Below the pieces are notes generated by a model, which saw only the letters and a program-made list of their open reading frames with translations, was not told where the DNA came from and searched no databases. Shown here piece by piece: positions 33,117 to 64,000 of a DNA stretch of 64,000 bases. Each line of letters opens with the position of its first letter. Position 1 is the first letter of the stretch. The stretch comes from Candidatus Gorgyraea atricola (GTDB lineage Bacteria > Omnitrophota > Gorgyraeia > Gorgyraeales > Gorgyraeaceae), in contig JAVCCW010000018.1 in NCBI GenBank assembly GCA_030765235.1, positions 25,465-89,464 of the forward strand. Direction: 5' to 3'. A program made the translations under genes and the position numbers.

Positions 33117-33911
33117 TTATTTCTTCCTATATGCGTTGAGGAATGAGTCGCAGTAGAGCTGCTTTTCCATGAGTAGCTCTGCTGTTATCGCAGCGTCTAC
33201 TAGTTCTTTGTCTGTGGCGTCCATGATAGCTGCGTCAAGGCCGTTGGCTATTGCCATTGCTAGAAATGTCCTGTTAATGATGCTTTTACATTGAGAAGGC
33301 GCGCCCTGTGAAACATTGGAAAGGCCAAGTATGGTCTTTGGCGCGGGATCTGCGAGCATCTTTGACTCTCGTATAGTCCTTAGCACCTCTTTTGCATGCA
33401 CCTGCGCAACGTTTACAGGGAGTATCACAGCATCCAGGTATAGATCTGACAGGTTAATGCCATGCTCCATGGCAGATGCTACGATCTTCATGCCGAGCTC
33501 GAGCCTGCCTTCGGTATCCTTTGGTATGCCTGCTTTGTCCATGGTCAAGCCTATGACTGAGGCATTGTATTTTTTTGCTAGAGTAAACAGCGAATCCATT
33601 TTATCCTGGTTGGCGTTTACGGAATTTATTATGGGTTTTGATTTACATGCTGATAGACCGGCTTCCATTACATCTTTTTTTGTTGTATCAATCGCAAGTG
33701 GCGCATCGCTGACTTCGGTAATGGTTTTTACAAGCCACTCCATTGCCTCTTTTGGGTTGTCTGATGATGGGCCAACATTTACATCAAGCGCGCTTGCGCC
33801 AGCTGAAGTCTGCTTTTTCGCAAGGTCCTGTATTACAGATTTATCTTTTTTCTGTATTGCCTGCGCCACATCCTTAAACATCCCGTTGATTCGCTCACCG
33901 ATAATAAACAT
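33117..33911 (-). CDS. acsE: Methyltetrahydrofolate:corrinoid/iron-sulfur protein methyltransferase (pterin-binding)
   Basis: MFIIGERINGMFK...; Wood-Ljungdahl context with acsD, cooC and RACo. Confidence 0.85.
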   Translation of the reverse strand: MFIIGERINGMFKDVAQAIQKKDKSVIQDLAKKQTSAGASALDVNVGPSSDNPKEAMEWLVKTITEVSDAPLAIDTTKKDVMEAGLSACKSKPIINSVNANQDKMDSLFTLAKKYNASVIGLTMDKAGIPKDTEGRLELGMKIVASAMEHGINLSDLYLDAVILPVNVAQVHAKEVLRTIRESKMLADPAPKTILGLSNVSQGAPSQCKSIINRTFLAMAIANGLDAAIMDATDKELVDAAITAELLMEKQLYCDSFLNAYRKK

Positions 33912-33925
33912 GTTAAGCTCCTGTG

Positions 33926-34010
33926 TTCTGTGTAATGTGTAAGGTGTAAGGTGTAATGTAACCGGGATAGCTTGGTACATTACACATTAAACATTACACC
34001 TTACACAAGT
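33926..34010. repeat. Hairpin repeat family C (GGTGTAA heptamer units, inverted)
   Basis: tgtgtaatgtgtaaggtgtaaggtgtaatgta...tacattacacattaaacattacaccttacaca. Confidence 0.75.
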
Positions 34011-34947
34011 CCTGTATGATCTTTTTAGTCTCCTCAACCGCCCGAGGATGGTTCATGACAAGGATGTCTGAACCTGCATTGAGATACGCTACAGCAGTGG
34101 CTGTCTCATACAATGCACCCCTGTCTTTGCTAGGTCCCCAGTCTTTCGCAGCCTCGTCGCCAGTCTTTGCCTCTTTAGTACGCCAGACCTCTTGCCCCAC
34201 AAAATTTATGAGAGGCATTGAAAGCATCTTGTCGCCTGATAGACCAGCAAGCCGCGTCCTTTCCATTATTGAATAAGTGTATTCCAGGCCATAGCCCAGC
34301 GCGCCTGTTGCGTGATGAATCACTATTTTATCCTGCGGGAATTGCATATCGCAGATAAGTATGTTCAGCTGCTTTGCAATATTTATGTCAATCGGTGCCT
34401 CAGAAATAATAGCATGACCTCCGCTCAAGCACGCTGCGGTCAGGGTCTTGTAATTTTCCTGTGTCGCAATACCAAAAAGACAGTTTTTGCCTTTTGCAAC
34501 ATCTGTGCAATGTACCATTACGTCGCTATCCTTTTGTGCAGTCCCGCTGCCTATTACAATAAGCGGCACATCCACAGCCTTTAAGATGTTTTCCAGTGTC
34601 TTGCCGGCATCTTGCCCAGAGGCGTTTTTCGTATCCGGGTGCGCGCTTGCAAGGCGAAGACATATCAAATCTGCTGAGAATTTCTCTACACAGAGCTTTG
34701 CCCATGCAACTGGATCCTTTAACGCAGCGCCGAAATTAGCCTTTAAGTCCTCTGGCCACTCAGGCGGCTCCATATCCCACACCTCCATTGCCACCTTAGG
34801 GGAATTCGGACATTTATCCTCACCTTTTATGAAAAATATACCCGTCTCCCCACCAACAGTAACCCTTGTCCCTTGTCCCTTGTCACTTGTCACTCCCAGC
34901 GCAACCTCACTTATTGTGTCCTGCCATTTTTCAATTACCCTGTCCAT
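33994..34947 (-). CDS. acsD: Corrinoid iron-sulfur protein small subunit (AcsD/CdhD)
   Basis: TIM-barrel protein of about 317 aa; N-terminus carries the in-frame heptamer-encoded segment TSDKGQGTRV. Confidence 0.8.
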   Translation of the reverse strand: MDRVIEKWQDTISEVALGVTSDKGQGTRVTVGGETGIFFIKGEDKCPNSPKVAMEVWDMEPPEWPEDLKANFGAALKDPVAWAKLCVEKFSADLICLRLASAHPDTKNASGQDAGKTLENILKAVDVPLIVIGSGTAQKDSDVMVHCTDVAKGKNCLFGIATQENYKTLTAACLSGGHAIISEAPIDINIAKQLNILICDMQFPQDKIVIHHATGALGYGLEYTYSIMERTRLAGLSGDKMLSMPLINFVGQEVWRTKEAKTGDEAAKDWGPSKDRGALYETATAVAYLNAGSDILVMNHPRAVEETKKIIQDLCKV

Positions 34948-35657
34948 ACTGTCTCCTTAAGTTCAAATTCTATTGTCTCTGGTATTTTTTCACCTGTCTC
35001 ACTTATTTTTTGTATCTCTTCCTGAAAAGGAATATGACATTCTACAGTTAAGCCAGAATTATTTATTAGTTCCTGACTTTTCTTCTCAATAGTCCCTTTT
35101 GACTTATTTATAATGAGCGAGGCGCTTTTTACCTTTAGGCCAGCCTTTTTTGCAGTTTCGAATGCGTTTATAGCTGATCGTACACCAACTGCGGTTGTGT
35201 CGCTGACCAATAAAAGCTTATCTACGCGATCTGCTGTACGCCGGCTAAGGTGTTCCATGCCAGCTTCGTTGTCTATCACGATATATTTATAATTCTTACC
35301 GAGTTTTGACAGGTATTCTCTCAGGATATTGTTTATGGCGCAATAACAGCCAGGCCCTTCTGGTCTTCCCATAACAAGAAGGTCTATGCCTTCTCCTTCT
35401 GTAATTATCTCCTCCAGCCTCATGTTGAAAAGATCACTTTTGGAAAAACTTGCTGAAGAAGATTTTTTTGCCTCTTCGCGTATATCTGAAATGGTCTCGT
35501 TATATTCAAGTCCTAACGCTACATTGAGATTGGCATTCGGGTCAGCGTCAATTGCCAGTATTGGCCTATCTATTTTCAGAAGGCGCCTGATTAGTAACGC
35601 GCTAACTGTAGTCTTGCCAACCCCGCCTTTTCCAGCAATAGCTATTATGTATGGCAT
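34935..35657 (-). CDS. cooC: CO dehydrogenase maturation ATPase CooC/AcsF
   Basis: IAIAGKGGVGKTTVSA...AIDADPNANL. Confidence 0.9.
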   Translation of the reverse strand: MPYIIAIAGKGGVGKTTVSALLIRRLLKIDRPILAIDADPNANLNVALGLEYNETISDIREEAKKSSSASFSKSDLFNMRLEEIITEGEGIDLLVMGRPEGPGCYCAINNILREYLSKLGKNYKYIVIDNEAGMEHLSRRTADRVDKLLLVSDTTAVGVRSAINAFETAKKAGLKVKSASLIINKSKGTIEKKSQELINNSGLTVECHIPFQEEIQKISETGEKIPETIEFELKETVWTG

Positions 35658-35668
35658 TTGATATATTT

Positions 35669-35800
35669 TGTTGTGTGTTGTGAGGGTGAGTTATGGGTTG
35701 TGGGTCGAGTTGTGGGTTGTGAGTAGTGAGTTAAAACCCACAACTCATCCACACAACCCGACTCACAACTCACAACACACCCCCACCCTCACAACTCACA
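35669..35800. repeat. Hairpin repeat family B copy 1 (GGTTGTG/CACAACC heptamer-like units)
   Basis: ttgtgtgttgtgagggtgagttatgggttgtgggtcgagttgtgggttgtgag...cccacaactcatccacacaacccgactcacaactcacaacacacccccaccctcacaactcaca. Confidence 0.8.
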
Positions 35801-37706
35801 GCAGCCACTTTTTCACCGACGGGAACAGCTCTATGTCCGTGTGCGGCAAAAATAGCGCTGCGCTGTAATTATTCATAAAAGATGAATTCACGCTTAAGTC
35901 AAGGTATGTCATTTTATCAGCGATCAAATGAGCCTTATCCATTGCCTCGCTTGAAAGGATCGCCATCTTTGCCCCTGTTATCGAAGTATTGCCCAGAAAT
36001 TCAAATTTTGACTCTGGAAAATCTGGCAAGAGCCCAATGTTTATGGCTGAGCGTATGTCCAGTGCTGTACCAAGGCCGCCTGCAATAAATACGTGCTTTA
36101 AGTCAGACTTTTTATAGCCTGATTCTTTTAAAAGTACCTCGATGCCAGTATAGATGGCACCTTTTGAATGGATGATATTTTTGATATCGTTCTCATCGAT
36201 AATTATCTTGCCCGTGAGGACTACGGCCTTTACGCCATTCACCTCTTTTACCTTGCAGATCTTGTTGTCATTGATCCTGCCAGAGCGATCAATGATCCCG
36301 TGTTTTAGAAGCGCGCTAAGACAGCTTATTATTCCAGAACCACATATGCCTTTTGCAGGCGCATTGCCTATGGTCTTTACGCAGAGTTTGTTTTTCTTTA
36401 TGGATACATCTTCGATCGCGCCTTTCATTGCCCTGATACCTGAGGACAGGCCGCCGCCTTCAAAGCATGGGCCAGCAGATGTGGAACATGCCATGTAGTA
36501 TTCTTTGTTGCCCACAACCACTTCACCGTTTGTGCCCAGGTCAATAAAAAGCGACAGGTCTTTACTGCTATCCATGCCAGATGCCAAGACACCACTTATA
36601 ATGTCTCCGCCCACATAACTGCCTATTGAAGGCAGGCACGATAAAAGGCCGCGTGGATTTATTTTTATACCTGCTTCCGCGGCACGGATAACTGGCATAA
36701 AGTTTACAGCTGGTATATAGGGGTCTTTTCTTATGTATTCAGGATCTATCTTTAAGAGAAGATGCGTCATTGTTGTATTGCCTGCGCACATTACTGCTGT
36801 GATGTCATCGAGTGTTAGGCCGCGCTCCTTTGCCAGGTTATATACGAGCATGTTTACAGTATCTATTACTGCGTGGTGGAGTTTTTCAAGGCCTCGCCCT
36901 TCTTTTGCGTATACAATTCTTGAGATTACATCTTCGCCAAAATCGACCTGTGGGTTATAGCTTGCCTTTGCAGCCAGGACTTGTTGGGATTTTAGATCAA
37001 TGAGGTACGCGACTATGGTAGTGGTGCCGATATCAAGCGCTACGCCGAGATTTTTCGCTGAGCGACTGCCTGGCTCAACAAGCACTATTTCTGTGGTGCC
37101 GTTTCTGTTGCCAAGGGTTACTGTGACTTCCCAGTTACTTTCTCTTAGTAGTCGCGGGAGTTTTTTTATGTTTGCGAGTCCCATCTGCATGACAGGGATA
37201 TTTTTATCCTTTCGTATCTCTCTGAATAAGCGCTCTACATCGCCGCAATTATCATCAATGGAGGGTGGCGGGAGCTTTAGAGATAGTTTTGTGGAAAGCG
37301 GGCCATGCTTGAATACCTTTGCCCTTGTCTTGTGGTGCTCTTCTTCTATTTTTTCAGCTGGCGTATATAGGCCTGCGAGCCGCTTTGTCTTTGTCTCTTC
37401 TGTAAGCACCTCTATGTCGCCTAATCTTGATTCCTCAGGGATCAGGACTTCCAGATCAGACTGGGGTATGGTCCTGCAGGCAAGCACATAGCCTTTCTTG
37501 CGTTCTTTCTCGGAAATTCTACCGCTATATTCAGTATCATACTTACCTTTTTTAACAATAACCTTGCACCTACCGCACACACCCTCTCCCCCACAGCTAT
37601 TATATATATGTATCCCAGCTTTAATAGATGCAGTAAGTAGATCCGTGCCCTTATCTACACTAATAGCCTTCTTCTCAGGCAGAAATGTAATCTTAATATC
37701 CTTCAT
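35796..37706 (-). CDS. Reductive activator of corrinoid protein (RACo/AcsV): N-terminal 2Fe-2S ferredoxin + ASKHA ATPase
   Basis: CGGEGVCGRCK ferredoxin motif; 636 aa. Confidence 0.85.
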   Translation of the reverse strand: MKDIKITFLPEKKAISVDKGTDLLTASIKAGIHIYNSCGGEGVCGRCKVIVKKGKYDTEYSGRISEKERKKGYVLACRTIPQSDLEVLIPEESRLGDIEVLTEETKTKRLAGLYTPAEKIEEEHHKTRAKVFKHGPLSTKLSLKLPPPSIDDNCGDVERLFREIRKDKNIPVMQMGLANIKKLPRLLRESNWEVTVTLGNRNGTTEIVLVEPGSRSAKNLGVALDIGTTTIVAYLIDLKSQQVLAAKASYNPQVDFGEDVISRIVYAKEGRGLEKLHHAVIDTVNMLVYNLAKERGLTLDDITAVMCAGNTTMTHLLLKIDPEYIRKDPYIPAVNFMPVIRAAEAGIKINPRGLLSCLPSIGSYVGGDIISGVLASGMDSSKDLSLFIDLGTNGEVVVGNKEYYMACSTSAGPCFEGGGLSSGIRAMKGAIEDVSIKKNKLCVKTIGNAPAKGICGSGIISCLSALLKHGIIDRSGRINDNKICKVKEVNGVKAVVLTGKIIIDENDIKNIIHSKGAIYTGIEVLLKESGYKKSDLKHVFIAGGLGTALDIRSAINIGLLPDFPESKFEFLGNTSITGAKMAILSSEAMDKAHLIADKMTYLDLSVNSSFMNNYSAALFLPHTDIELFPSVKKWLL

Positions 37707-37764
37707 AATAGCTATGATTTTAACACGCGGGTTGGGCGATGGTCAAGGGAAATGAGGTTGGCGT

Positions 37765-37989
37765 AAAAGCTAAAAGCAGACCTGTGCGCTCAGGTGAAAA
37801 TTTCCCCCTTGCGGGGTCGTCTTTTATTTTGCATTTTGGTGGGGCCGAAAAAACTTACCCGACACCATAGGTGTCGGGGTCGAACAGTTTTCGACCTTTT
37901 TGTCTCATAAAATGTGACGGAATAAACCACCAAAACACAAAATAAAAGACTAAATTTTCAATTCGCTCCCAGGTCTGCTTTTAGCTTTT
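37765..37989. mobile_element. MITE-like element copy 1 (225 bp) with perfect 20-bp terminal inverted repeats AAAAGCTAAAAGCAGACCTG
   Basis: aaaagctaaaagcagacctg...caggtctgcttttagctttt; the interior holds several hairpins and no ORF. Confidence 0.75.
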
Positions 37990-38072
37990 AAGATTCCCTG
38001 TTTAAAAAATCTGTGCTTGCAATCTGATTAAATCTAACCTGGTTAGAAATGTCAAGAAATCTTAAAAATTTT

Positions 38073-38435
38073 TTAATTTTTAAAAAGCAAAGAGACTAAA
38101 GATGATAATGAAAATAGTGTTATCGCCGTACTGAAAGTCAAATGCCACGATATGTTTAAATTCTTGCTATTTTGTGTCGAAGTATCGCTGATTTGTTTTT
38201 GTTCAACATGATAAGCTTGCGCTGTGCCGCTACCACTAGAATTAACACGAATATCATTATCTTTCCATATACTTTTTGGGCCTGTCATGCTTTGAGATGT
38301 TTGGATTGTAATCATCAATTTTGAGATAGAAAATCGAAGATAGAGTAGAGAGAGAACAACAAATATAGCCATAATTACTGTAATTATTTTTCGATTTTTC
38401 ACATTTTTCTCCTTTTTTATTTTCTCAGCTAACAA
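38073..38435 (-). CDS. AT-rich hypothetical small membrane protein, 120 aa
   Basis: Two hydrophobic segments; low GC; sits between the two MITE copies. Confidence 0.45.
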   Translation of the reverse strand: MLAEKIKKEKNVKNRKIITVIMAIFVVLSLLYLRFSISKLMITIQTSQSMTGPKSIWKDNDIRVNSSGSGTAQAYHVEQKQISDTSTQNSKNLNISWHLTFSTAITLFSLSSLVSLLFKN

Positions 38436-38578
38436 TTAATAGGCGAATCTACTATTCTTTGCTATTAGTAGCAGCTTAGAACGTCTTATTCTATAGCCGA
38501 GCATACTGTCTATCGCGACTTATATAGTATTATGTTACCACTTAAAGCAAGAGAAGACAATTGTTTAAATTGCACGAT

Positions 38579-38850
38579 AAAAGCTAAAAGGAAGACCTGG
38601 TAGCGAATTTGAAAATTTAGTCTTTTATGTAGCATTTTGGCGGTTTCTATGGCTCATTATATGAGCCCAAAAGGCCGAAAACTGTTCGACACCCACACCT
38701 ATGGTGTGGGTGAAGTTTTTTCGGTCCCGCCAAAATGCGGAATAAAAGACGACCTGTTTCCGAGCGGAGTCCCGCCCTTTCGTAGAAAGGGCGGGGCGAA
38801 GCGAGGAGGGAAATTTTCATCTGAGCGAACAGGTCTTCCTTTTAGCTTTT
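38579..38850. mobile_element. MITE-like element copy 2 (272 bp), inverted orientation, diverged, with a ~50-bp internal insertion
   Basis: aaaagctaaaaggaagacctg...caggtcttccttttagctttt; the interior is homologous to copy 1 (shared ccgaaaaaactt...caccataggtg...cgaacagttttcg). Flanked by cacgat/atcgtg. Confidence 0.75.
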
Positions 38851-38892
38851 ATCGTGTATGGCGCTACATTTTAGTGTAGGATTAGACAGAAA

Positions 38893-38953: not shown

Positions 38954-39256
38954 TTACTTCTGCTTGACCTTTAGCTCCGTGCCGCAGGTTGGGCAATATT
39001 GGACGCCTGAGGTATGGTCTGATCCGCATTCAGGGCAGAATTTTGTGTCCATTGCATCGCCTATTAAGGCGCCGCCTGCTGCTCCTGCTGCTCCGCCTAT
39101 TAGAGCGCCTTCAGCAGTATGGCCTGACTGGTGGCCTATGATCGCGCCTGCTCCTGCTCCGATCAAGGTGCCCATGCCAGCGCCCTTTTGCGTACCTGTG
39201 CAACCAACAACAAAGGCCAACATAATTACTAATGCTACTACAGTGTATTTTTTCAT
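38954..39256 (-). CDS. Lipoprotein with glycine-zipper segment and C-terminal zinc-ribbon (CPECG...CPTCG)
   Basis: Lipobox LAFVVGC; GAGAGAIIG...GGAAGAAGGALIG; C-terminal CxxC-x13-CxxC. Confidence 0.65.
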   Translation of the reverse strand: MKKYTVVALVIMLAFVVGCTGTQKGAGMGTLIGAGAGAIIGHQSGHTAEGALIGGAAGAAGGALIGDAMDTKFCPECGSDHTSGVQYCPTCGTELKVKQK

Positions 39257-39312
39257 ATCTACATCCTCCCTCTATTTCAATTATAGCATTGTATCCAATA
39301 AAAACAAGAGCG

Positions 39313-39855
39313 CTACTTAATTAATCTGATCCTAGTTGGTGGCCAGTAGATCAGGAAGGCCTTGCCCTTGACATATTTTTTCGGCAAAAATCCCCAGTAC
39401 CTCGAGTCCCTGCTCGAGATGCTATTATCTCCGAGCACATAATAGTCATTGTCTGGTATTTCTAAAACCTGATCTTTTTCGCCGTAATCGCCCCTATTGT
39501 AATAATACCTCTCCTTTATGATAGAGCTCGCGTCAACAGCCTTATTACCAATAAGAATCGTGCCATTTGATATTTCTAGACTCTCCCCAGGTAGCCCCAC
39601 AAGCCTCTTTATAAAATCCTTTTTCTTGTCCTCAGGCGAGACAAACACGATCACATCGCCCCTCTCTGGTTTTTTGAATTTGTATATAAATTTACTCACC
39701 ATGATCCTATCGCCTTCCATTAAAGTAGGCCTCATAGAACCAGTGGGTATCTTAAATGCCTGCACAATAAATGTCCTGATTATAAGCGCCAATATTACAG
39801 CTATAATTATCGGCTCGACCCACTCCTTCATGAAATAACGTAGTTTGGGATTCAT
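39313..39855 (-). CDS. lepB: Signal peptidase I
   Basis: IPTGSMRPTL with catalytic Ser; GDNS box. Confidence 0.9.
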   Translation of the reverse strand: MNPKLRYFMKEWVEPIIIAVILALIIRTFIVQAFKIPTGSMRPTLMEGDRIMVSKFIYKFKKPERGDVIVFVSPEDKKKDFIKRLVGLPGESLEISNGTILIGNKAVDASSIIKERYYYNRGDYGEKDQVLEIPDNDYYVLGDNSISSRDSRYWGFLPKKYVKGKAFLIYWPPTRIRLIK

Positions 39856-39871
39856 ATAGTCTCCAGTCTCG

Positions 39872-39920
39872 AGCCGAGGTCCAGCCTCGGCTTTTGAAAA
39901 AGCCGAGGCTGGACCTCGGC
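39872..39920. repeat. Palindrome family H copy 1 (CCGAGGTCCAGCCTCGGCTTTTGAAAAAGCCGAGGCTGGACCTCGG, nested hairpins)
   Basis: Perfect palindrome directly downstream of the lepA stop. Confidence 0.85.
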
Positions 39921-39924
39921 AATA

Positions 39925-41718: not shown

Positions 41719-41722
41719 AATA

Positions 41723-41766
41723 CCGAGGTCCAGCCTCGGCTTTTGAAAAAGCCGAGGCTGGACCTC
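41723..41766. repeat. Palindrome family H copy 2
   Basis: ccgaggtccagcctcggcttttgaaaaagccgaggctggacctc. Confidence 0.85.
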
Positions 41767-47377: not shown

Positions 47378-47391
47378 AATTCTCACAACGT

Positions 47392-47435
47392 CCCTACATT
47401 TGTAGACCAGGTTTAAACCTGGTCTACAAATGTAG
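47392..47435. repeat. Palindrome family G copy 3 (compensatory variant TGTAGACCAGGTTTAAACCTGGTCTACA)
   Basis: cctacatttgtagaccaggtttaaacctggtctacaaatgtagg. Confidence 0.85.
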
Positions 47436-48699: not shown

Positions 48700-48727
48700 A
48701 ATCCCGTCCGCCAATGGCGGACGGGAT
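48700..48727 (-). terminator. Rho-independent terminator-like hairpin after the 48758..49936 gene
   Basis: cccgtccgccaatggcggacggg followed by a U-run on the minus strand. Confidence 0.6.
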
Positions 48728-48757
48728 TGTAATCTGCTAAAATCTAACCTGGTTAGA

Positions 48758-49936: not shown

Positions 49937-49958
49937 ATTCCCCTCCTTTTTTATTTGC

Positions 49959-53559: not shown

Positions 53560-53583
53560 GTCGCTTCAGCCCCTCCTCTGTCA

Positions 53584-53645
53584 GACCTGGCAAGGCTGGA
53601 CCTCGGCTTTTTTAAAAGCCGAGGTCCAGCCTTGCCAGGTCTGCT
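53584..53645. repeat. Palindrome family H copy 3 (variant centre TTTTTTAAAA, longer arms)
   Basis: ctggcaaggctggacctcggcttttttaaaagccgaggtccagccttgccag. Confidence 0.85.
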
Positions 53646-54817: not shown

Positions 54818-54823
54818 AAGATA

Positions 54824-54939
54824 AATCCCAAATTCAAATACTACCAAATCCCAAATAAATCCAAAATCCCAAAGCATGTTTGGGATTTAGAAATTGGGAT
54901 TTATTTGGTAGTATTGGTATTATTGGGATTTGGGATTTT
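54824..54939. repeat. Hairpin repeat family A copy 4
   Basis: aaatcccaaattcaaatactaccaaatcccaaataaatccaaaatcccaaagcatgtttgggatttagaaattgggatttatttggtagtattggtattattgggatttgggatttt. Confidence 0.8.
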
Positions 54940-56275: not shown

Positions 56276-56296
56276 TAATCTCTCCTTCCGCGTGCC

Positions 56297-56383
56297 CCGT
56301 TCCAAAATCTCTGATTTTGGAACGGGGCGTAGTTCCGCGTCTAAAGTAGACAAAACAGTCAGTGACTGTTTTGTCTACTTTAG
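56297..56383. repeat. Two adjacent hairpins between acsB and acsC: a CCCCGTTCCAAA hairpin and palindrome family F copy 3
   Basis: gtgccccgttccaaaatctctgattttggaacggggc followed by ctaaagtagacaaaacagtcagtgactgttttgtctactttag. Confidence 0.8.
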
Positions 56384-56406
56384 CTTCCGCGTAAGTTCCG
56401 CGATTC

Positions 56407-58584
56407 TCACATTACCGCTTCCATTGTTAGTGCCGGATGACCGACCTTTTCCAGATGCGGCAATAACTTTTCCATGTCTGTAGCAACGGTCTCGTCAGCT
56501 ATTTTATTTATAAAATCTGGATCACCCAACTCTTCGCATCTCTTTTTTAATTTATCAGATAGAACCTCTTTTAATTCCTTAGGCATCCATACGACTCTTT
56601 TGAGCCCGCCTTCCGCTGAAATGAATTTCTTGCTGGCAATGTACAGTCTTCCAACACCCATGAAACCAGGTGTTTGCTGGCCTCCGCCTATAGTTCCCGC
56701 CAATGTAGAAAATCCCATACCAGCTGGCGTCGGGCCTGCGTATTCTCTATTTACCACCATAAAACCATTTGCCTCAGGCAATATCGCGATTATACATTCA
56801 AAGCACCCGCAGCTTGTCTCTGGCGAATCCATGATAGAATAACCGCAGAATCTATCCAGGCTGCGATTAGATTTTTGCGCAACAGCTTCATTTACACCTG
56901 TCCACTCACCTTTAACAGGGTCAAGACACTGGCCTTTTTTAATAGGTTGATTTGGCCCTGCAGGATTCAGCTCATTAGATGCCTTTGCGTCCAACCAGTT
57001 ATAAGCGCCGCAAAGGCCCAGCCTCTCAGGCTTTATTATGCATACATGATTTGGCGCAAAACTCTGACAAAGCGTACATGTCCAGAATAGATCTACGCTC
57101 TCATCTGTCATGCCAGCGACACGCGCATCCCTTTCATCATAGGCCTTTTGTGCCCCTTCTATATTTTTTTCAATATCTTCCTGCTTTGTATATACGGTGA
57201 CCTGTACTTTATCAGCTATTGCGCTAAACACATCATGAAACCTTGCATGCAGAATCACGCCAAAATGTTTTAGCTTAAGGCCTTTGTTTTTGGCATCTTT
57301 CGAGATCCTTATCCAGCACATGTCTCTCTGGCCCATATGAAAAATACCCATGGCCTCGTTCAAGAAACTATGTATCTGTCTCTCGAGTATTGGCTCAAAA
57401 TCCTTTTGCATCTTTCTGCCTGCTACCTCGACAACAATACCAAGAGGTATGGCCTTGCCTTCTTTGATATCATCGATTTCTGGTCCAATGACCTCGATCT
57501 TCCCATCCTCTACTTTAGCCGCATCTACCATTTTGACAAACTCGAATGCATCGGAGTATTTTCCGCCGAACTGCGCATACATCTGCTCGCGCCGAACTCT
57601 CTCGCCCTCGAATGCCGGAGAATAAGAAACTGGTATGGGGATCTCTGAGACCTTTAGTTTTATGCCTCGAAGTTCAATGGCCGCGGGTACTATTTTTTTA
57701 TGATCCAATTCTCTTATCACATGTTCGTATGTGCAGATACCTGTTGGCCTGATCTCAGGTATATTTGTATCAGCTATTATTGGAAAACCCATGTTTATGG
57801 CGCCTGCGCCTGTTGCGTATTTTACATCATCCAACTCATCCAAGACCATTCCAAACGCAAATACTCTGTCTTTACAATATTTTAGGCATTTCAGTGCCTC
57901 GCCTTTTCTGTGGCCGCCAAATGTAAGCGCGCCGCGAATAGCCCAGTTTAAAGGATATATGGCGCTCAGGGTATCTCTGCCGTAAGGCACTATATAGGTA
58001 TCCCAGCCCATTTCTACTTTTTCTTCTAGTAACTGGTCGATTATACTCCTACCGTTGACATTGCTGCCGACAAAGGTCATTATGCTGCGTTTTTGTAGCT
58101 CGCGTACAATATAAACAGCTGTCTTATTGTCTGGCGCAGCGCCTAAGATCGCTGCAAATCCAGGCATCCTGCCATCCACAAGCTGAATGCCAAGCGTACG
58201 CAGGATCGTATCTGAGAAAAATCCATTGCAGTCCTTTTGCGGTTCCTGATTATACAGGTAGCGCAATGCCATTATGATCTCTTCGCATAGTAACGCAGCT
58301 ATACCTGAATCCAGAGTATCTCCTAAATATGGCAGCCATATCTTCTGCGTGGGCTCATCGTGAAGCAGTGTCTTTGAAAAATCCAGGACCTCTTTGGCGC
58401 CGCTCAAGGTCTGCACTTCTTTTCCAAGCAGCGCGTATGCCATAGGAAAATAAAAAGCTGTCTCTGGAAACTTGACCTCACATGACTCGCCCTTCTCTTT
58501 TATAGCCTTTAATAGAAAATCTTCTGCTTCTTTATAAATTTTCTGCGCGCCTCTAATAGCAGCCGATGCAATGATCTTCGACAT
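56407..58584 (-). CDS. acsB: Acetyl-CoA synthase catalytic subunit (AcsB/CdhC, A-cluster)
   Basis: 725 aa; CGCFEC A-cluster motif. Confidence 0.92.
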   Translation of the reverse strand: MSKIIASAAIRGAQKIYKEAEDFLLKAIKEKGESCEVKFPETAFYFPMAYALLGKEVQTLSGAKEVLDFSKTLLHDEPTQKIWLPYLGDTLDSGIAALLCEEIIMALRYLYNQEPQKDCNGFFSDTILRTLGIQLVDGRMPGFAAILGAAPDNKTAVYIVRELQKRSIMTFVGSNVNGRSIIDQLLEEKVEMGWDTYIVPYGRDTLSAIYPLNWAIRGALTFGGHRKGEALKCLKYCKDRVFAFGMVLDELDDVKYATGAGAINMGFPIIADTNIPEIRPTGICTYEHVIRELDHKKIVPAAIELRGIKLKVSEIPIPVSYSPAFEGERVRREQMYAQFGGKYSDAFEFVKMVDAAKVEDGKIEVIGPEIDDIKEGKAIPLGIVVEVAGRKMQKDFEPILERQIHSFLNEAMGIFHMGQRDMCWIRISKDAKNKGLKLKHFGVILHARFHDVFSAIADKVQVTVYTKQEDIEKNIEGAQKAYDERDARVAGMTDESVDLFWTCTLCQSFAPNHVCIIKPERLGLCGAYNWLDAKASNELNPAGPNQPIKKGQCLDPVKGEWTGVNEAVAQKSNRSLDRFCGYSIMDSPETSCGCFECIIAILPEANGFMVVNREYAGPTPAGMGFSTLAGTIGGGQQTPGFMGVGRLYIASKKFISAEGGLKRVVWMPKELKEVLSDKLKKRCEELGDPDFINKIADETVATDMEKLLPHLEKVGHPALTMEAVM

Positions 58585-58596: not shown

Positions 58597-59886
58597 TTAT
58601 AATGTCATTGTTGTTTCTTTGAATTCCTTTTGCTTAAAGCCCTGCTTTGAGTTCTTTACAATATTGACTATCTTGCCATAATTAAAATGGTCTTCGAGGA
58701 TCGTATCTTTTATTGCGCTTACATCTACTTTATTCTTGATCAAGGTACCCAGGATACCGATTGTTTCAACTGCGTTTAGCGTTATGGCGCCTACAATAAT
58801 GCCGTTACGCAAAACTATTTTCTTGTAGATCTTTCTATTCTCGTCTTTTTTTATCAGTTCTTCGTATATATCTTTCTTGGGCTTTGTGATCCCTATTGAG
58901 ATCACAGGCAGGCCAAAAAACTCCAAAGAATTCATGGCAAGAGAACCTTCATAAGATTCTTTCTCACCTGTCATATTTAAACCAGCGATCCTGCCTTGTT
59001 CGCAGGCAGCTGGCCAGATCGCGTTTATCGAGTTCTCTTCTAGAGCAATGTCATGCGCCTCAGCAACATCACCGGCTGCAAAGATATCTTTGTTATCCGT
59101 CTTTAAAAATCCGTCCGCTAATATCCCCCAGTTTGTCTTTATTCCCGCGTCTTTTGCTATAGCTATATTTGGGCTGACCCCTTTACCTATAATAACCAGC
59201 TCGCAGGGATATTCAGATCTATTGTCGATGATCAAATTTTTAACAGAATCGCTTCCTTTGATCTCGGTTGCAGCGCTTCCAGTCTTGATCTTTATGCCTT
59301 TTTCTTCTATATGTGCCTGCATTATGTCAGCAGAACCTTTGTCTATTATTTGGGAAAGGATCTGAGGCGACCGCACAAATACTGTGACCTCTTTACCTCT
59401 ATTCTTAAGCGCGTATGCAGCTCGCAGACCCACAAGACCGCCACCCAGTACTGCGACCTGCTTGACCCTGCCCAGCATGGATTGCATTTCCAAGGCATGC
59501 TCTATAGTCCTTAAAGGAAATACACCTTTTTTGTCAACGCCTTTTACGCTTTCCATCTTTGCGGACGCGCCTGTTGCAATAAGAAGCTTGTCGAATTTTA
59601 TCTTTTCTTTGTTCGCGAGAGTGATCTCTTTTTTGTCAGTGTCTATTTTTTCTGCCCTGACCCCTAAAACGGTATCGACCTTGTTTTCCTTGAAGAAATT
59701 TTCAGACCGGTACCATATTTTTTTCTCGTCAATAGTCCCTGCCAGAAAATATGAGATCAGGCATCTGGAGTAAAGAGGTGTTTTTTCGTCAGATAAAACT
59801 ACTATCTTGGATTTTTTATCCTTTGAGCGAATGGCCTCTATCGCGTTTATGCCAGCAGCGCTGGAGCCAATGATCACGTATTGCAT
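58597..59886 (-). CDS. FAD-dependent pyridine nucleotide-disulfide oxidoreductase (CODH-associated)
   Basis: VIIGSSAAGINA and VAVLGGGLVGLRAA dinucleotide-binding motifs. Confidence 0.8.
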   Translation of the reverse strand: MQYVIIGSSAAGINAIEAIRSKDKKSKIVVLSDEKTPLYSRCLISYFLAGTIDEKKIWYRSENFFKENKVDTVLGVRAEKIDTDKKEITLANKEKIKFDKLLIATGASAKMESVKGVDKKGVFPLRTIEHALEMQSMLGRVKQVAVLGGGLVGLRAAYALKNRGKEVTVFVRSPQILSQIIDKGSADIMQAHIEEKGIKIKTGSAATEIKGSDSVKNLIIDNRSEYPCELVIIGKGVSPNIAIAKDAGIKTNWGILADGFLKTDNKDIFAAGDVAEAHDIALEENSINAIWPAACEQGRIAGLNMTGEKESYEGSLAMNSLEFFGLPVISIGITKPKKDIYEELIKKDENRKIYKKIVLRNGIIVGAITLNAVETIGILGTLIKNKVDVSAIKDTILEDHFNYGKIVNIVKNSKQGFKQKEFKETTMTL

Positions 59887-60395
59887 AATTTTTTCTTAAA
59901 CTCCTTTTCTGTGCCTAAGAATAACGCGGCTGTCTGGCATGCCTCTACGCATGCGGGTATATCCCTATCAGGACAAAGGTCGCACTTTACAATGATCTTA
60001 TCTTGTTTCTGCCTTGAAAGTGCGCCAAATGGACAGCTCATTATGCACATCCAGCAGCCCACGCATTTTTCTTCATCATGTTTTGTCTGACCGGTCTTCT
60101 TGTCTTTATACATCGCACTAGACATGCACGCTGCTACGCACGGCGCGTCCTCGCAGTGATGACAGCCTGTTGAAATAACTATACCCCATTCCAAATTGCC
60201 AGCTTCTGTAATTTTAGGAAATTTGGAACGGGGCACGTCTCCCTCGATTGATTCAGCCTTGCGCCTTTTTATTGGCAGCGGCCTTTCTTTTATTGCCTCA
60301 TCAAGCTTTTTGGATTTAGAATGCTCCACTGCGCATGCAATCTCGCATGCCCTGCAGCCTATGCATTTTTTAATATCACAATATATTTTTTTCAT
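59874..60395 (-). CDS. cooF: 4Fe-4S ferredoxin, CooF-like
   Basis: Several CxxCxxCxxxC(P) motifs. Confidence 0.85.
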   Translation of the reverse strand: MKKIYCDIKKCIGCRACEIACAVEHSKSKKLDEAIKERPLPIKRRKAESIEGDVPRSKFPKITEAGNLEWGIVISTGCHHCEDAPCVAACMSSAMYKDKKTGQTKHDEEKCVGCWMCIMSCPFGALSRQKQDKIIVKCDLCPDRDIPACVEACQTAALFLGTEKEFKKKLCNT

Positions 60396-60399
60396 AACC

Positions 60400-62316
60400 T
60401 TATGCCGCAGTAGCGTACATCCTGGGTTTCAACTTTAATGCCTTGCGTTTTCTATCTATGTGCTCTATCATCATATGCGCTGCCTTTATGGGATCCTCCT
60501 CAAAAGCGAATTTACCACCAACGACTTCTTCAATCTCATTGCATATATAATTAGTGACATTTTTACTTCCTAATACAGGTTGAGCACCTCCAAAAATTGT
60601 AAAAACACCTGAAGCAACAAAATACATACCTATGGATATGGCCTTCTGGCTCATCCATTCAGGCGCAGCGCCTGCTGCAGGCAGATCAGAAATATCTTCG
60701 CCCAGCCCACCTTCCTTTACAACTTCGGCTGCAGCTATCAGGATACGCGAATTATCCACGCAAGAGCCCACGTGAAGAACAGGAGGAATACCCACTGCCT
60801 CGCAGACCTCTCTTAGGCCAGGGCCTGCCATTTCCATTGCTGCTTCGGGCGTCATAAGGCCTGCCTTTGCGCATGCGATAGCTGAGCAGCCAGTCTGCAA
60901 TACTATGACGTCGTTTTTGATCAACTCCTTAACCATTTCGATATGGGCCCAATCATGTTTTATCTTTGGATTATTGCATCCAACCACTCCTCCTATGCCG
61001 CGAATCCTTCCAGATATTATTGCATCGTTTAATGGCCTGTAAGTGCTCCTAAAACGGCCGCCCAATATCTGCTTAACCTGTTCTGCTGTAAACCCAGCCA
61101 CTAAGTCCATTATCTCTTTTGGGATATTCACTCTATTCTTATCTCGCTTTTTATAATTGTCGACTGCTCGCTTTATTATGCTTTTTGCTACCTCGTAGGC
61201 CTTTTCTTCCTTGAATTCAATGTGAGTTACTCCTGGAAATTTCAACTTAGGCGAGGTAGTGACGATCTCTGTATGAAAACACTGCGCCAGGTCTGTCAAT
61301 GCAGGCATAATACACTGTACATCCACCATCATGACTTCTACCGACCCTGTAAGGATCGCTAACTCCTGCTGGAGAAAATTCCCGGCAGTGTGTACACCGT
61401 GGCGCATCAGTATTTCATTGGCAGTGCAGCACATACCCACTAGATTGATTCCTTTTGCGCCTTGTTTTTTTGCCAGTTCCAATAATTCTGGATCTTTGCA
61501 CGCCTTAACAGCCATTTCTGAAAGCGTAGGCTCATGGCCATGTACTACAACATTGACCTCATCCTCTTTTAAGACCCCAAGATTTACCTTGCTCCTTATG
61601 GGTTGGGGGCTGCCTAGCATTATGTCCTGTAACTCAGTAGCTATCATTGAGCCGCCCCAGCCGTCGCCCAATGAACACCGCATGCCATGTGTGATTATGT
61701 TTTTATAATCATTGTCCACACCCATGTGAACTCTGTGCAGTGATTCGACTATTTCTCTGTCTATTCCCCGAGGCATAATGCCCAACTTTCTCCACAGCTC
61801 CACCCTTTTCTTGGGCGCCCTTGAAACAAATTTCAGCTCGCCATGCTGCTGCCCAAATTCAGAAAGCGCCTTTTCAGCAATCTCTTTGGCTATTTCGATA
61901 TCTGACTTTCCATCTACAGAGATCTCGTATATCCTGGCAATCTCTATGAGTTTTATTTTGTCTGAAATGCCATAATCGTGCGTTTTTCCTTCGCCAACAA
62001 GGGCTAGCGTATGGGCCACATCCCTGCCATGGTCTGAATGCGCTGCTGCGCCAACTGCTATGTGGTTGAGCAGGTTTCTTGCAACTATTGTGTCAGCATT
62101 AGCGCCGCATACGCCGACCTGCGCGCCTTCGCCAAACGGGTCTATTCTGCACGGACCCATCCTGCAATTCGTGCAACACACGCCCAGCTCGCCAAAGCCG
62201 CATTGCGGCTGCATCGCCTCCAGCCTGTCCCACGCAAGCTGTACTGAATCTTTCTCTGCCTGTTTTAGAATATGTTGAGACGCTTTATCTGCAGACCTCT
62301 CTGAATACTTCGTCAT
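60400..62316 (-). CDS. cooS: Anaerobic carbon monoxide dehydrogenase catalytic subunit
   Basis: CGFGELGVCCTNCRMGPCRI; 638 aa. Confidence 0.93.
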   Translation of the reverse strand: MTKYSERSADKASQHILKQAEKDSVQLAWDRLEAMQPQCGFGELGVCCTNCRMGPCRIDPFGEGAQVGVCGANADTIVARNLLNHIAVGAAAHSDHGRDVAHTLALVGEGKTHDYGISDKIKLIEIARIYEISVDGKSDIEIAKEIAEKALSEFGQQHGELKFVSRAPKKRVELWRKLGIMPRGIDREIVESLHRVHMGVDNDYKNIITHGMRCSLGDGWGGSMIATELQDIMLGSPQPIRSKVNLGVLKEDEVNVVVHGHEPTLSEMAVKACKDPELLELAKKQGAKGINLVGMCCTANEILMRHGVHTAGNFLQQELAILTGSVEVMMVDVQCIMPALTDLAQCFHTEIVTTSPKLKFPGVTHIEFKEEKAYEVAKSIIKRAVDNYKKRDKNRVNIPKEIMDLVAGFTAEQVKQILGGRFRSTYRPLNDAIISGRIRGIGGVVGCNNPKIKHDWAHIEMVKELIKNDVIVLQTGCSAIACAKAGLMTPEAAMEMAGPGLREVCEAVGIPPVLHVGSCVDNSRILIAAAEVVKEGGLGEDISDLPAAGAAPEWMSQKAISIGMYFVASGVFTIFGGAQPVLGSKNVTNYICNEIEEVVGGKFAFEEDPIKAAHMMIEHIDRKRKALKLKPRMYATAA

Positions 62317-62325
62317 CTTGCCTCC

Positions 62326-63192
62326 TTATAATCCAGCTGCATCCAATACTAAAGGTACTTTCTTATCCCAGCCAATAGGCATGATGTGAATACCATGGCA
62401 CATGGGTTTTAGTTCTTTTATTAGCCGTGCTGCTATCTCTATTGATTTAGCGCTTCTATCCTGCGCCTTGTCCATCTCCTGAATGAGATCGTCAGGCACA
62501 AACACGCCGCTCACATTTTTATTCATGAATTTTGCCATGCCTGCTGATTTTAAAAGCACAATGCCTGCAATAATCGTGGTTTTTAAATGCTTTGACGCGT
62601 CTAAAAATTTCTTGAACAGTTCTATATCGTAAATCGCCTGGGTCTGGAAAAACTGCGCGCCAGCTTCGATCTTCTTCTCCATCTTTATAACTTCTGGCTC
62701 TATAGGATCTGCGCCTGGATTCACAACCGCGCCTGTGCAGAATTTTGGAGCGCCCTTTAATTCCTTTCCTGCCATGTCTTTTCCTGACTCGAGCGTCCTG
62801 ATCGCATCTAAAAGCTGCACTGAATCCATGTCAAACACAGGCTTTGCATCAGGATGATCACCTAATGCAGGATGATCACCTGTTAGCGCCAACACATTCT
62901 CTATGCCCAGGACCGCTGCTGAGAGAAGATCAGACTGAAGAGCAAGCCGGTTCCTATCCCTACATGTCATCTGAAATACTGGCTCTAAGCCTTGCTCGAT
63001 CAAAAGCTTGCATATAGCCAAAGACCCCACGCGCATCACTGAGCTCTGTAGATCAGTGACATTTATCGCATCCACTTTACCTTTAATAAGCTCTGCGTCT
63101 TTTAACACCTCTTCAATATCCGTACCCTTAGGTGGCCCTATCTCAGAGGTAATTATGAACTTCTCTGTCTTGATTCTTTCGCATAAAGACAT
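62326..63192 (-). CDS. metF: Methylenetetrahydrofolate reductase
   Basis: TIM-barrel MTHFR, 288 aa. Confidence 0.8.
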   Translation of the reverse strand: MSLCERIKTEKFIITSEIGPPKGTDIEEVLKDAELIKGKVDAINVTDLQSSVMRVGSLAICKLLIEQGLEPVFQMTCRDRNRLALQSDLLSAAVLGIENVLALTGDHPALGDHPDAKPVFDMDSVQLLDAIRTLESGKDMAGKELKGAPKFCTGAVVNPGADPIEPEVIKMEKKIEAGAQFFQTQAIYDIELFKKFLDASKHLKTTIIAGIVLLKSAGMAKFMNKNVSGVFVPDDLIQEMDKAQDRSAKSIEIAARLIKELKPMCHGIHIMPIGWDKKVPLVLDAAGL

Positions 63193-63204
63193 GTTGCTCC
63201 TTTT

Positions 63205-63320
63205 GGTTGTGAGGGTGAGTTATGTGTTATGAGTCGGGTTGTGGGGGTGGGTTGTGAGGCGCTAACTCACTACCCACAACTCACAACTCGACCCACAACC
63301 CATAACCCACCCACACCCTC
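63205..63320. repeat. Hairpin repeat family B copy 2
   Basis: ggttgtgagggtgagttatgtgttatgagtcgggttgtgggggtgggttgtgagg...cccacaactcacaactcgacccacaacccataacccacccacaccctc. Confidence 0.8.
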
Positions 63321-63321
63321 A

Positions 63322-64000
63322 TTACTTCTGCAACTTAGTCGTTTCCAGCAGATTCTTCATAAGTATGGCTACGGTTAAAGGGCCTACGCCGCCTGGAACA
63401 GGCGTGATATACGCGGCTCTTTCCTGCGCCTTATCAAATTCCACGTCTCCAACCAACTTGCCTTCTACTCGATTTATGCCTACATCAATAACAATCGCGC
63501 CTTCTTTTATCCACTCGCCCTTTATGAGCCCTGCTTTGCCCACTGCAACTATCAGAATCTCTGCCTTTTTTACAAATTCGGGTAAGTTTCCTCTTTCGCC
63601 TGTAGCAATATGACACACAGTAGTAGTCGCAAATTTATTTAGCAGCATGAGCGCCAGCGGTTTTCCGACTATCTCGCTATGCCCTACTACAACAACCTCT
63701 TTTCCGTAAAGCTTCAATCCTTCGATCGAATTTAATATCTCCATACACGCTGCAGCTGTGCACGGCAAGACCTTTGCGTTGCCAAACACGATCTCGCCCA
63801 TGTTCTGCGGGTGCACTGCCTCTACATCTTTTAAAGGCGCTATGTGCTTGGATATTGACTTGGCATCTATGTGAGAAGGAAGCGGCATCTGAATAATTAT
63901 GCCATTAACCGCAGCATCTTTATTTAATTTCTCAATGGTCTTTATAAGGTCTGCCTGCGAGACATCTGAGGCGAGTTTTTCAATATGATAATCTATGCCG
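63322..64000 (-). CDS. folD: Bifunctional methylene-THF dehydrogenase/methenyl-THF cyclohydrolase; 5' end beyond window end
   Basis: Reading frame stays open upstream of the annotated Met (...NKDAAVNGIIIQMPLPSHID...), so the true N-terminus lies beyond position 64000. Confidence 0.88.
   Translation of the reverse strand, partial: GIDYHIEKLASDVSQADLIKTIEKLNKDAAVNGIIIQMPLPSHIDAKSISKHIAPLKDVEAVHPQNMGEIVFGNAKVLPCTAAACMEILNSIEGLKLYGKEVVVVGHSEIVGKPLALMLLNKFATTTVCHIATGERGNLPEFVKKAEILIVAVGKAGLIKGEWIKEGAIVIDVGINRVEGKLVGDVEFDKAQERAAYITPVPGGVGPLTVAILMKNLLETTKLQK

Follow-up and report, generated by a model that had tools for sequence, protein, structure and literature searches.

The DNA analysed here (the window) is a stretch of 64 000 nucleotides from contig JAVCCW010000018.1 of Candidatus Gorgyraea atricola. 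It carries a gene set for the Wood–Ljungdahl, or acetyl-CoA, pathway that is divided between two blocks. An earlier reading, made from the letters of the window alone (the sequence-only reading), had named folD through acsC followed by pgsA, plsY and a dinG-like gene in the first block, and RACo, cooC, acsD and acsE in the second; Pfam and NCBIfam profiles found every one of these genes where it had placed them. It had also described the pathway as split in two, and this is confirmed. The stop of acsC and the start of RACo are 17.2 kb apart, and both junctions recur in independent assemblies.

Gene content of the two blocks

Proteins were assigned to families with Pfam and NCBIfam profiles, the curated cut-offs of NCBIfam being applied. 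All genes between 30 and 64 kb lie on the minus strand, and they are described here from high coordinates to low. The first, folD, encodes the bifunctional methylene-tetrahydrofolate (THF) dehydrogenase/cyclohydrolase and extends from 63322 to beyond 64000 (Pfam THF_DHG_CYH_C, 208.7 bits, and part of THF_DHG_CYH). The window edge truncates its 5′ end, which removes about 60 residues from the N-terminus, and the NCBIfam FolD models align from approximately position 60. It is followed by a gene for a MetF-type methylene-THF reductase of 288 amino acids (aa; 62326-63192; Pfam MTHFR, 137.2 bits), a divergent type that matches best the MTHFR half of PRK08645 and misses the equivalog cut-offs. Next comes cooS, or acsA, for the catalytic subunit of Ni,Fe-carbon monoxide dehydrogenase (CODH; 60400-62316; TIGR01702, 688 bits against a cut-off of 478), then a cooF-like gene for a 4Fe-4S poly-ferredoxin (59874-60395; Pfam Fer4_11 and other Fer4 families), and a gene for an FAD/NAD(P)-dependent oxidoreductase (58597-59886; Pfam Pyr_redox_2 and Rubredoxin_C). 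The best NCBIfam match of the latter, PadH, scores 308 bits and is under the cut-off; its slot between cooF and acsB is kept in most Omnitrophota loci. The block ends with acsB, for a full-length acetyl-CoA synthase that includes the CODH-docking N-terminal domain (56407-58584; NF040764, 1027 bits against 800), and acsC, for the large subunit of the corrinoid iron-sulfur protein (54938-56275; NF003195, 597 bits against 306; Pfam CdhD and FeS).

The second block begins with the gene for RACo/AcsV, the reductive activator of the corrinoid protein (35796-37706; Pfam Fer2, RACo_linker, Raco_middle and RACo_C_ter, all above cut-off). It continues with the gene for a putative Ni-insertion ATPase of the CooC/AcsF type (34935-35657; Pfam CbiA, AAA_31 and Fer4_NifH), acsD for the small subunit of the corrinoid iron-sulfur protein (33994-34947; NF003376, 391.5 bits against 280), and acsE for the methyl-THF:corrinoid iron-sulfur protein methyltransferase (33117-33911; NF005719, 305 bits against 259). 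The mechanically called open reading frame (ORF) starts of acsC, pgsA and acsE extend into hairpin DNA, and were re-set from family and orthologue alignments to 56275 (MALSGLDIY), 54817 (MNLANKIT) and 33911 (MFIIGERING), respectively. The profile alignments begin at residue 27 of the mechanical ORF for AcsC (NF003195) and at residue 24 for AcsE (NF005719).

Between the blocks lie co-oriented housekeeping genes. Directly after acsC come pgsA, for a CDP-alcohol phosphatidyltransferase (54263-54817; Pfam CDP-OH_P_transf, 128.7 bits), and plsY, for glycerol-3-phosphate acyltransferase (53646-54266; Pfam G3P_acyltransf, 184.8 bits), which overlap by 4 nucleotides (nt), and then a gene for a DinG/YoaA-like helicase (51502-53559; Pfam Helicase_C_2, DEAD and DEAD_2; NCBIfam YoaA, 605 bits, short of the cut-off of 680). 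The remainder (38954-51419, assigned from ORFs and NCBIfam) comprises genes for two secreted proteins without assigned function, trpB, trpA, a mannose-1-phosphate guanylyltransferase gene, ruvX, an M16 peptidase gene, rpe, a phosphohexomutase gene, lepA, lepB and a gene for a glycine-zipper lipoprotein. The two secreted proteins (486 and 392 aa) are encoded side by side at 48758-51419 and have no Pfam or NCBIfam match; the 486-aa protein is kept in three relatives from the same clade (loci L005, L053 and L026, numbered as explained below). Strand bias over the whole 64 kb is extreme: the plus strand is used only at 2485-3824, and the cumulative GC skew drops monotonically. At the gathering threshold, Rfam finds tRNA-Gly alone in the window.

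Integrity of the enzymes

The ligands of the B-, C- and D-clusters in CooS, and of the A-cluster in AcsB, all align with those of solved structures. AcsB aligns end to end with the acetyl-CoA synthases of Carboxydothermus hydrogenoformans and Moorella thermoacetica (PDB 7zkj_B, E 2.7e-210), and has the A-cluster ligands C503-x2-C506-x8-C515-x9-C525 together with the nickel site C592-G-C594. CooS matches PDB 6t7j_B (E 1.6e-229) and 6ytt_B, the CODH of the CODH/acetyl-CoA synthase complex of Clostridium autoethanogenum (E 4e-203). The ligands C39, C47, C48, C51, C56, C70, H261, C296, C335, C447, C477 and C519 are present, and the motifs CGFGELGVCCTNCRMGPC, GVCGA, HGHEP, GMCCT, VQCIM, VGCNNP, TGCSA and GSCVD are shared with both structures. 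AcsC has the motif C43-x2-C46-x4-C51. The CooC-type ATPase has the deviant Walker A sequence GKGGVGKT (residues 9–16) and the pair C104-Y-C106, and it occupies the same slot, between RACo and acsD, in more than 30 loci. Disrupted active sites in AcsB or CooS, which the sequence-only reading had named as grounds for giving up a working pathway, were not seen; the metal-cluster ligands are complete in the alignments.

The split and its origin

Species-representative genomes were scanned with the AcsB of the window, which gave 80 loci. In total 125 loci were fetched (cited here by L numbers), and the window proteins were placed on them by tblastn. Taxon names of loci are the labels of their submitters. 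Layouts were counted over the 62 loci that have at least 4 kb after acsB. More than half of these (32/62) have the contiguous order acsB-acsC-RACo-(cooC)-acsD-acsE, usually with folD-metF-cooS-cooF-oxidoreductase in front, and they are labelled as Omnitrophota, Elusimicrobia, Kiritimatiellia, Lentisphaerae, Phycisphaerae, Armatimonadota and others. The junction acsC-pgsA-plsY-dinG, as in the window, occurs in seven of the 62, and also in L004, which has a shorter flank; loci with the acsC-pgsA junction run on into trpB-trpA-manC-ruvX-M16-rpe like the window. In the other 23, the flank after acsB contains no acsC. L035, for instance, has genes for a TPR protein, polA, glgA, coaE, rho and prfA downstream of acsB.

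Both ends of the split are found elsewhere. The left junction occurs in L001-L006, L026 and L053. The right junction has the order lepA-lepB-lipoprotein-RACo-cooC-acsD-acsE-YjbQ-HPS/RraA-DRTGG-M16-Memo. It is complete in L082 and L084 and partial in the shorter L081, L083, L099 and L113; these are independent metagenome contigs, and their RACo proteins are 76-83% identical to that of the window. The intervening gene order is kept in L003, L005, L006, L053 and L082-L084. Comparison of gene orders thus indicates that the split is derived from a contiguous operon and is not an artefact, because the contiguous order is found in 32 of 62 loci and the junctions recur in independent contigs; it is recurrent, and standard in the clade to which the window belongs. 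By the same comparison, the cluster is judged to have broken at least twice in the phylum. That contig pieces were misjoined, or the 17-kb block mis-scaffolded, might be suspected of an uncultured organism with repeats at the junctions. It is extremely improbable given that both junctions appear in assemblies from different projects (left, L001-L006, L026 and L053; right, L081-L084, L099 and L113), that a metagenome contig from the Joint Genome Institute (L125) is 100% identical to the window across cooC-acsD-acsE, and that composition and strand are uniform.

The intervening block is the product of chromosomal rearrangement rather than an island, because its genes are single-copy housekeeping genes, on the same strand and with the same GC content as the flanks, and no integrase is present. 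The block has a GC content of 0.39-0.45, like the flanks, and Pfam and NCBIfam find no integrase or transposase in it. The MITE-like elements (MITE, miniature inverted-repeat transposable element) and repeat hairpins at both junctions in the window might suggest instead that the 17 kb were acquired horizontally, as an island or mobile element inserted in the operon. We give this very little credence: the block consists of genes such as trpBA, lepA, lepB, rpe, ruvX, pgsA and plsY, and relatives with the same split lack the MITE pair and the junction hairpins, which are therefore later than the split. The junction repeats were also considered as the cause of the split, and were rejected for the same reason, that relatives share the split without them.

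A further alternative is that the two-part layout is ancestral for Omnitrophota, and that contiguous clusters are secondary fusions or operons transferred whole. Module exchange does happen in this group. The cooS slot upstream of acsB holds two types of CODH within one clade: in L004 and L005 cooS directly follows metF and its product is 87-89% identical to the CooS of the window, while in L003 and L006 it has its own cooC in front and its product is only 62% identical. In L053, cooS, cooF and the oxidoreductase gene are missing between metF and acsB. That two cooS types swap at one position, and that AcsB and CooS identities follow taxon labels imperfectly, lend this alternative some support. 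Nevertheless it is distinctly unlikely: the 32 loci with the contiguous order carry the labels of several phyla, the Moorella thermoacetica acs cluster has this order as well, and the breakpoints (after acsC in some, after acsB in others) and the neighbouring genes differ. By the comparison of gene orders, the ancestral layout is a single operon, folD-metF-cooS-cooF-oxidoreductase-acsB-acsC-RACo-cooC-acsD-acsE. In the clade of the window, a rearrangement separated acsC from RACo by a co-oriented housekeeping block of about 17 kb, which runs from pgsA to lepB and the lipoprotein gene.

Predicted transcription units

The sequence-only reading had proposed that the lipid-synthesis genes are co-transcribed after acsC, and this is supported by the relatives. 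In L002, L004 and L053 the start codon of pgsA overlaps the stop codon of acsC, as TTGA or ATGA (at 5705-5720, 12055-12070 and 9255-9270, respectively). This overlap indicates that in these relatives the corrinoid-protein gene is translationally coupled to the phospholipid-synthesis genes. The window itself has 120 nt of hairpin DNA between acsC and pgsA, and a consensus scan of this gap finds no strong promoter and no canonical terminator; read-through of pgsA and plsY from acsC is supported here too, by comparison. Transcription would join the first half of the pathway to pgsA-plsY, and in relatives the join would extend to translation. Ahead of the pair of secreted-protein genes (51493-51465) and of trpB there are perfect (12/12) sigma-70-type sites, and a strong terminator lies before the trpB site. 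This suggests that the first transcription unit ends at or after dinG.

The second half appears to run from its own promoter. A promoter-like site, TTGACC-N18-TAAAAT with a TG extension, is present on the minus strand at 37717-37746, and ends 10 nt before the ATG of RACo. The sequence CTTGACC-N14/15-CGTGTTAAAAT is invariant in seven contigs of the split clade, in which it ends 10-11 nt before the RACo ATG and the surrounding DNA cannot be aligned. In relatives of the contiguous type, the gap between acsC and RACo is 0-10 nt. No Shine–Dalgarno sequence is visible ahead of RACo, and since the promoter footprint lies so close to the start codon, the RACo mRNA appears to be near-leaderless. The second half would then be driven by a conserved promoter of its own, so near the RACo ATG that its transcript would have next to no leader.

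Intergenic hairpins and repeats

The sequence-only reading had drawn attention to hairpins in the intercistronic gaps. They are real: within and next to the acs genes, the gaps have folding energies of -33 to -77 kcal/mol (z-scores from -3.3 to -12). Any link to the pathway is not borne out, as the hairpins are found throughout the window and close relatives do not have them in the corresponding gaps. When near-perfect hairpins are defined by a stem of at least 12 bp and a loop of at most 10 nt, all 19 in the window (19/19) fall in non-coding DNA, which makes up 11.5% of it, and shuffled sequence, used as a control, yields 0-1.

In the first block, the gap between folD and metF holds a low-complexity hairpin of 129 nt, G/U-rich on one side and C/A-rich on the other (63193-63321; minimum free energy (MFE) -68.9 kcal/mol, z -6.45). 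The hairpin between RACo and cooC is a member of the same family (D7/D14). L003-L005 lack the hairpin between folD and metF, and their gap measures 12-58 nt. The gap between acsB and acsC (56276-56406; MFE -67.6 kcal/mol, z -11) contains two perfect hairpins, at 56340-56384 and 56294-56328, the first of which is copied at 2464 and 19449 (D4). This insert is missing in L001-L005, which have gaps of 0-26 nt; in L001, whose AcsB is 96% identical, the gap is 17 nt, compared with 131 nt in the window. At the left breakpoint of the split, the gap between acsC and pgsA (54818-54937; MFE -44.3 kcal/mol, z -7.2) holds an (AAATCCC)n/(GGGATTT)n hairpin with copies at 13567, 20584 and 22689 (D1/D2); relatives have unrelated hairpins there, or no gap. 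A perfect palindrome with 30-bp arms (I1) lies between plsY and dinG (53582-53643; MFE -64.7 kcal/mol, z -11.2). In the second block, RACo and cooC are separated by a low-complexity hairpin of 138 nt (35658-35795; MFE -76.9 kcal/mol, z -9.0), a gap that in relatives measures 41-103 nt and folds weakly, and a (GTGTAAG/GTGTAAT)n hairpin (I3/I6/I8) covers the stop codon of acsD and the gap between acsD and acsE (33922-34007; MFE -32.7 kcal/mol, z -3.3). All of these are given in minus-strand orientation.

The right breakpoint holds a larger insert (37764-38860), recognized by folding and repeat search. It consists of two inverted, MITE-like, long-hairpin elements of about 230-270 nt each (37764-37990 and approximately 38590-38855; MFE -111 and -138 kcal/mol, z -12.4 and -13.9) around an ORF of 120 aa (38073-38435) that has no family match. 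Two occurrences of the terminal inverted repeat TAAAAGCTAAAAGCAGACCTG, at 37764-37784 on the plus strand and 37970-37990 on the minus strand, form the ends of the first element; the second has a more diverged version of TAAAAGCTAAAAGCAGACCTG that a search allowing three mismatches missed. One internal stem shows paired changes between the two copies. The MITE insert, 1.25 kb in all, is private to the genome of the window, and the gap between the lipoprotein gene and RACo is about 130-180 nt in L081-L083. In a permissive Rfam scan of the 1.6-kb spacer between lepB and RACo nothing reached the threshold; the weaker matches, all to a miRNA precursor model with a long hairpin, reflect the length of the hairpins.

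Repeats of several kinds recur across the window. Palindromes with GTAG ends (e.g. TGTAGGCCAGGTTTAAACCTGGCCTACA) occur in four copies, the family beginning CTAAAGTAGACAAAACAG in three, and the GCCGAGGTCCAGCCTCGGCTTTT family also in three; the last consists of two back-to-back, GC-rich terminator hairpins with a T-run (GCCGAGGTCCAGCCTCGGCTTTT / AAAAGCCGAGGCTGGACCTCGGC), and its alternative folds are a single long stem and a bidirectional terminator. Palindromes of this last kind are found at 39873-39920, 41725-41766 and 53582-53643, after pgm, lepA and plsY, respectively. Long low-complexity hairpins are built of GGGATTT, GTTGTGAG or GTGTAAG units, and the multi-copy families D1-D7 are spread across the whole 64 kb. 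The window has 3.0 near-perfect hairpins per 10 kb, compared with a mean of 0.61 per 10 kb in 84 loci. Within the clade, density is 1.8-6.6 per 10 kb in L002, L003, L005 and L026, and 0.95 in L006; L004 has none. Three palindrome families were searched for in the 125 fetched loci and, apart from a single copy in L123, are not shared; conserved regulatory hairpins were dropped as an explanation on this ground. No transposase domain, including the REP-associated tyrosine transposase (RAYT) type, was found in the window ORFs scanned, and a literature search for intergenic palindromes in Omnitrophota found nothing.

A very stable hairpin in each gap longer than 20 nt within both acs blocks could be taken to mean that the hairpins are dedicated regulators of the Wood–Ljungdahl operons, which set the stoichiometry of the subunits. 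However, members of these families also separate unrelated genes elsewhere in the window; the inserts between acsB and acsC, folD and metF, and RACo and cooC are missing in relatives with 89-96% identical AcsB; and the sequences between acsC and pgsA are unrelated from species to species. A regulatory role of this kind is accordingly most unlikely. Because the hairpins are window-wide, vary from species to species and keep no fixed positions, they are best read as a clade-level expansion of palindromes like repetitive extragenic palindromic (REP) sequences or MITEs, which land in any intergenic gap and are not a property of the pathway. The perfect intercistronic stems of 20-30 bp would be textbook substrates of RNase III. 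The window carries a gene for this enzyme (rnc) at 5582-6304 on the minus strand.

Chemistry and direction of the pathway

The sequence-only reading had included methyl-branch enzymes in the set. This holds in part: FolD, truncated as described, and MetF are the only two in the window, and fhs and fchA are placed by the synteny of relatives. In L003 and L005, whose AcsB is 89% identical to that of the window, genes for formate-THF ligase (fhs; FTHFS, 876-881 bits) and for FchA (FTCD_C) lie immediately upstream of folD (2494-4898 in L003 and 2120-4507 in L005), with trmD-rplS-rnhB-UPF0102 in front. The cluster probably starts some 2.5 kb outside the window. Together with Fhs and FchA, whose genes probably lie past its end, FolD and MetF would reduce formyl-THF to methyl-THF. 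The methyl group would then move, through AcsE, to AcsC/AcsD, the corrinoid iron-sulfur protein, which RACo would hold in the active Co(I) state. CooS would reduce CO2 to CO, or oxidize CO, with CooF and the FAD/NAD oxidoreductase as the putative electron path, and AcsB, loaded with nickel by the CooC/AcsF-type ATPase, would combine the methyl group, CO and CoA to acetyl-CoA.

The pathway may run reductively, as an electron sink or to fix CO2, but the enzymes may also not work in that direction. They could oxidize CO, passing electrons from CooS through CooF and the oxidoreductase to NAD(P)H, or cleave acetyl-CoA oxidatively, or both, in a syntrophic or host-dependent lifestyle. In favour are the CooF and oxidoreductase module that accompanies CooS, and a survey of the phylum that notes possible reversal and the lack of formate dehydrogenase in many Omnitrophota (PMC10066038). 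The CODH-docking N-terminal domain of AcsB, typical of the bifunctional complex, argues otherwise, and the gene content of the window is neutral on direction; the clustering of fhs, fchA, folD and metF in relatives fits both. We regard non-reductive use as a tentative possibility, well short of an even chance.

Genes after acsE

The second unit continues past acsE (30187-33116, minus strand, assigned with Pfam and NCBIfam). A GTAG-type palindrome (33072-33109) separates acsE from a gene for a YjbQ/UPF0047 protein (32638-33057; TIGR00149, 108.5 bits), and a palindrome with 26-bp arms (32583-32635) separates this in turn from a gene for a fusion of hexulose-6-phosphate synthase (HPS) with RraA (31284-32570; NF005442, 601 bits against 593). 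The last gene encodes an AAA_26+DRTGG protein (30187-31299) that aligns with positions 4-371 of the 708 in PRK05632, and so covers only the N-terminal, non-catalytic half of Pta. Among the 27 loci informative for genes after acsE, the YjbQ/HPS-RraA/DRTGG trio occurs in seven, and DRTGG alone in nine more. This conserved tail might be the sign of a C1 shunt that couples formaldehyde, in exchange with methylene-THF, to the ribulose-monophosphate route. We think this unlikely; if true, pentose and hexose metabolism would be connected with the acetyl-CoA pathway in these ultra-small cells. No gene for the isomerase of that route, 6-phospho-3-hexuloisomerase (PHI), was found near HPS-RraA. A SIS-domain protein encoded at 18875-19531 was considered for this role and rejected, being GmhA-like.

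Weighing the evidence

Taken together, we read the region as a functional-looking bacterial Wood–Ljungdahl module of Omnitrophota, whose cluster has been split by rearrangement and whose hairpins are REP/MITE-like, and we put the probability of this at roughly 0.85. Several points weigh against it. The fhs and fchA genes very probably lie just outside the window, but this position is taken from the synteny of relatives, as the window ends inside folD. Formate dehydrogenase is absent from the 64 kb, as are hydrogenase, Rnf/Ech and Pta-Ack, and the window contains no MetV, Hdr or RnfC partner for MetF. RACo scores 636 bits with the NCBIfam AcsV model, under the exception cut-off of 800, and the CooC-type ATPase matched generic P-loop families only. 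The polarity of the layouts is drawn from locus counts and submitter labels rather than from a rooted species tree, and the operon boundaries from consensus scans and comparative footprints only. Finally, it is conjecture that the hairpins act on expression, be it by terminating some of the transcripts, by protecting the 3′ ends of mRNAs or as sites of RNase III processing.

Host lineage and relation to known systems

The sequence-only reading had placed the organism as PVC-like, and correctly: AcsB places it in Omnitrophota, of the Planctomycetes–Verrucomicrobia–Chlamydiae (PVC) superphylum. The best matches of AcsB are to Candidatus Omnitrophota (96% to the single-amplified genome AM-312-B13 and 92% to KR13_N2.mb.45). 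Further metagenome-assembled genomes (MAGs), some labelled 'uncultured Planctomycetia', follow at 87-89%. The closest relative classified in the phylum survey (PMC10066038) is L015 (JABMQJ01; Gorgyraia, family RBG-13-46-9), with 74% identical AcsB; AM-312-B13, the KR13 bins and the clade L001-L006 were not found in the supplementary tables of that survey. The Wood–Ljungdahl pathway was reported in the phylum earlier still (PMC8542988). The survey predicts that the classes Gorgyraia and Velamenicoccia are acetogens with acsABCDE, with or without CooS/F and mostly lacking formate dehydrogenase; it reports that many Omnitrophota do not have this enzyme, and notes that their Wood–Ljungdahl enzymes could run in reverse (PMC10066038). 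The second ground that the sequence-only reading had named for giving it up, a contig from a well-known acetogen lineage in which this arrangement is standard, thus largely applies: acsABCDE and predicted acetogenesis are published for the phylum (PMC10066038), the split is usual in its own clade, and a split of another kind is frequent elsewhere in Omnitrophota. In phylum and gene set, including cooS and cooF, the window resembles the 'most complete' type of Gorgyraia and Velamenicoccia (Seymour et al. 2023, PMC10066038). That work scores gene presence only; gene order is not covered, nor are the split, the pgsA fusion and the RACo promoter.

The window has the same enzyme set as the acs cluster of Moorella thermoacetica and Carboxydothermus hydrogenoformans, and its contiguous relatives have the same internal order, acsB-acsC-RACo-cooC/acsF-acsD-acsE. 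The order in those two species is cooC-acsA-acsB-acsC-orf7/RACo-acsF-acsD-acsE. Unlike that cluster, the window has 17.2 kb of other genes separating acsC from RACo, has folD and metF directly upstream of cooS, has CooF and the oxidoreductase between cooS and acsB, and lacks a cooC before cooS. The CODH of C. autoethanogenum and 6t7j resemble its CooS more closely than does the AcsA of Moorella. Modules of CooS, CooF and an FAD/NAD oxidoreductase occur in clostridial acetogens and other anaerobes. The trio in the window is the same (CODH, poly-ferredoxin and Pyr_redox_2 flavoprotein), but instead of being free-standing it is built into the acs operon, with metF on one side and acsB on the other. 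The palindromes, for their part, resemble the REP sequences, bacterial interspersed mosaic elements (BIMEs) and MITEs of Proteobacteria in being multi-copy, exclusively intergenic and variable in presence between close relatives, and two families have GTAG...CTAC ends, as in REP/BIME. They differ from proteobacterial REPs in that their stems are unusually long (up to 30 bp perfect, about 60 bp imperfect), several are of low-complexity heptamers, and they are species-private.

There is little new biology in this: the pathway is published, the phylum is one in which it is known, and the rearranged layout is typical of the clade. The region does provide a clean and well-replicated case of operon evolution, in which one half of an operon is fused to phospholipid-synthesis genes and the other half runs on what appears to be a near-leaderless promoter of its own. 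It also has a practical side. The cluster is often split after acsB or acsC in Omnitrophota, so that fragmented MAG bins can lose half of the carbonyl branch, and such bins may be scored as having a 'partial' pathway in metabolic calls.

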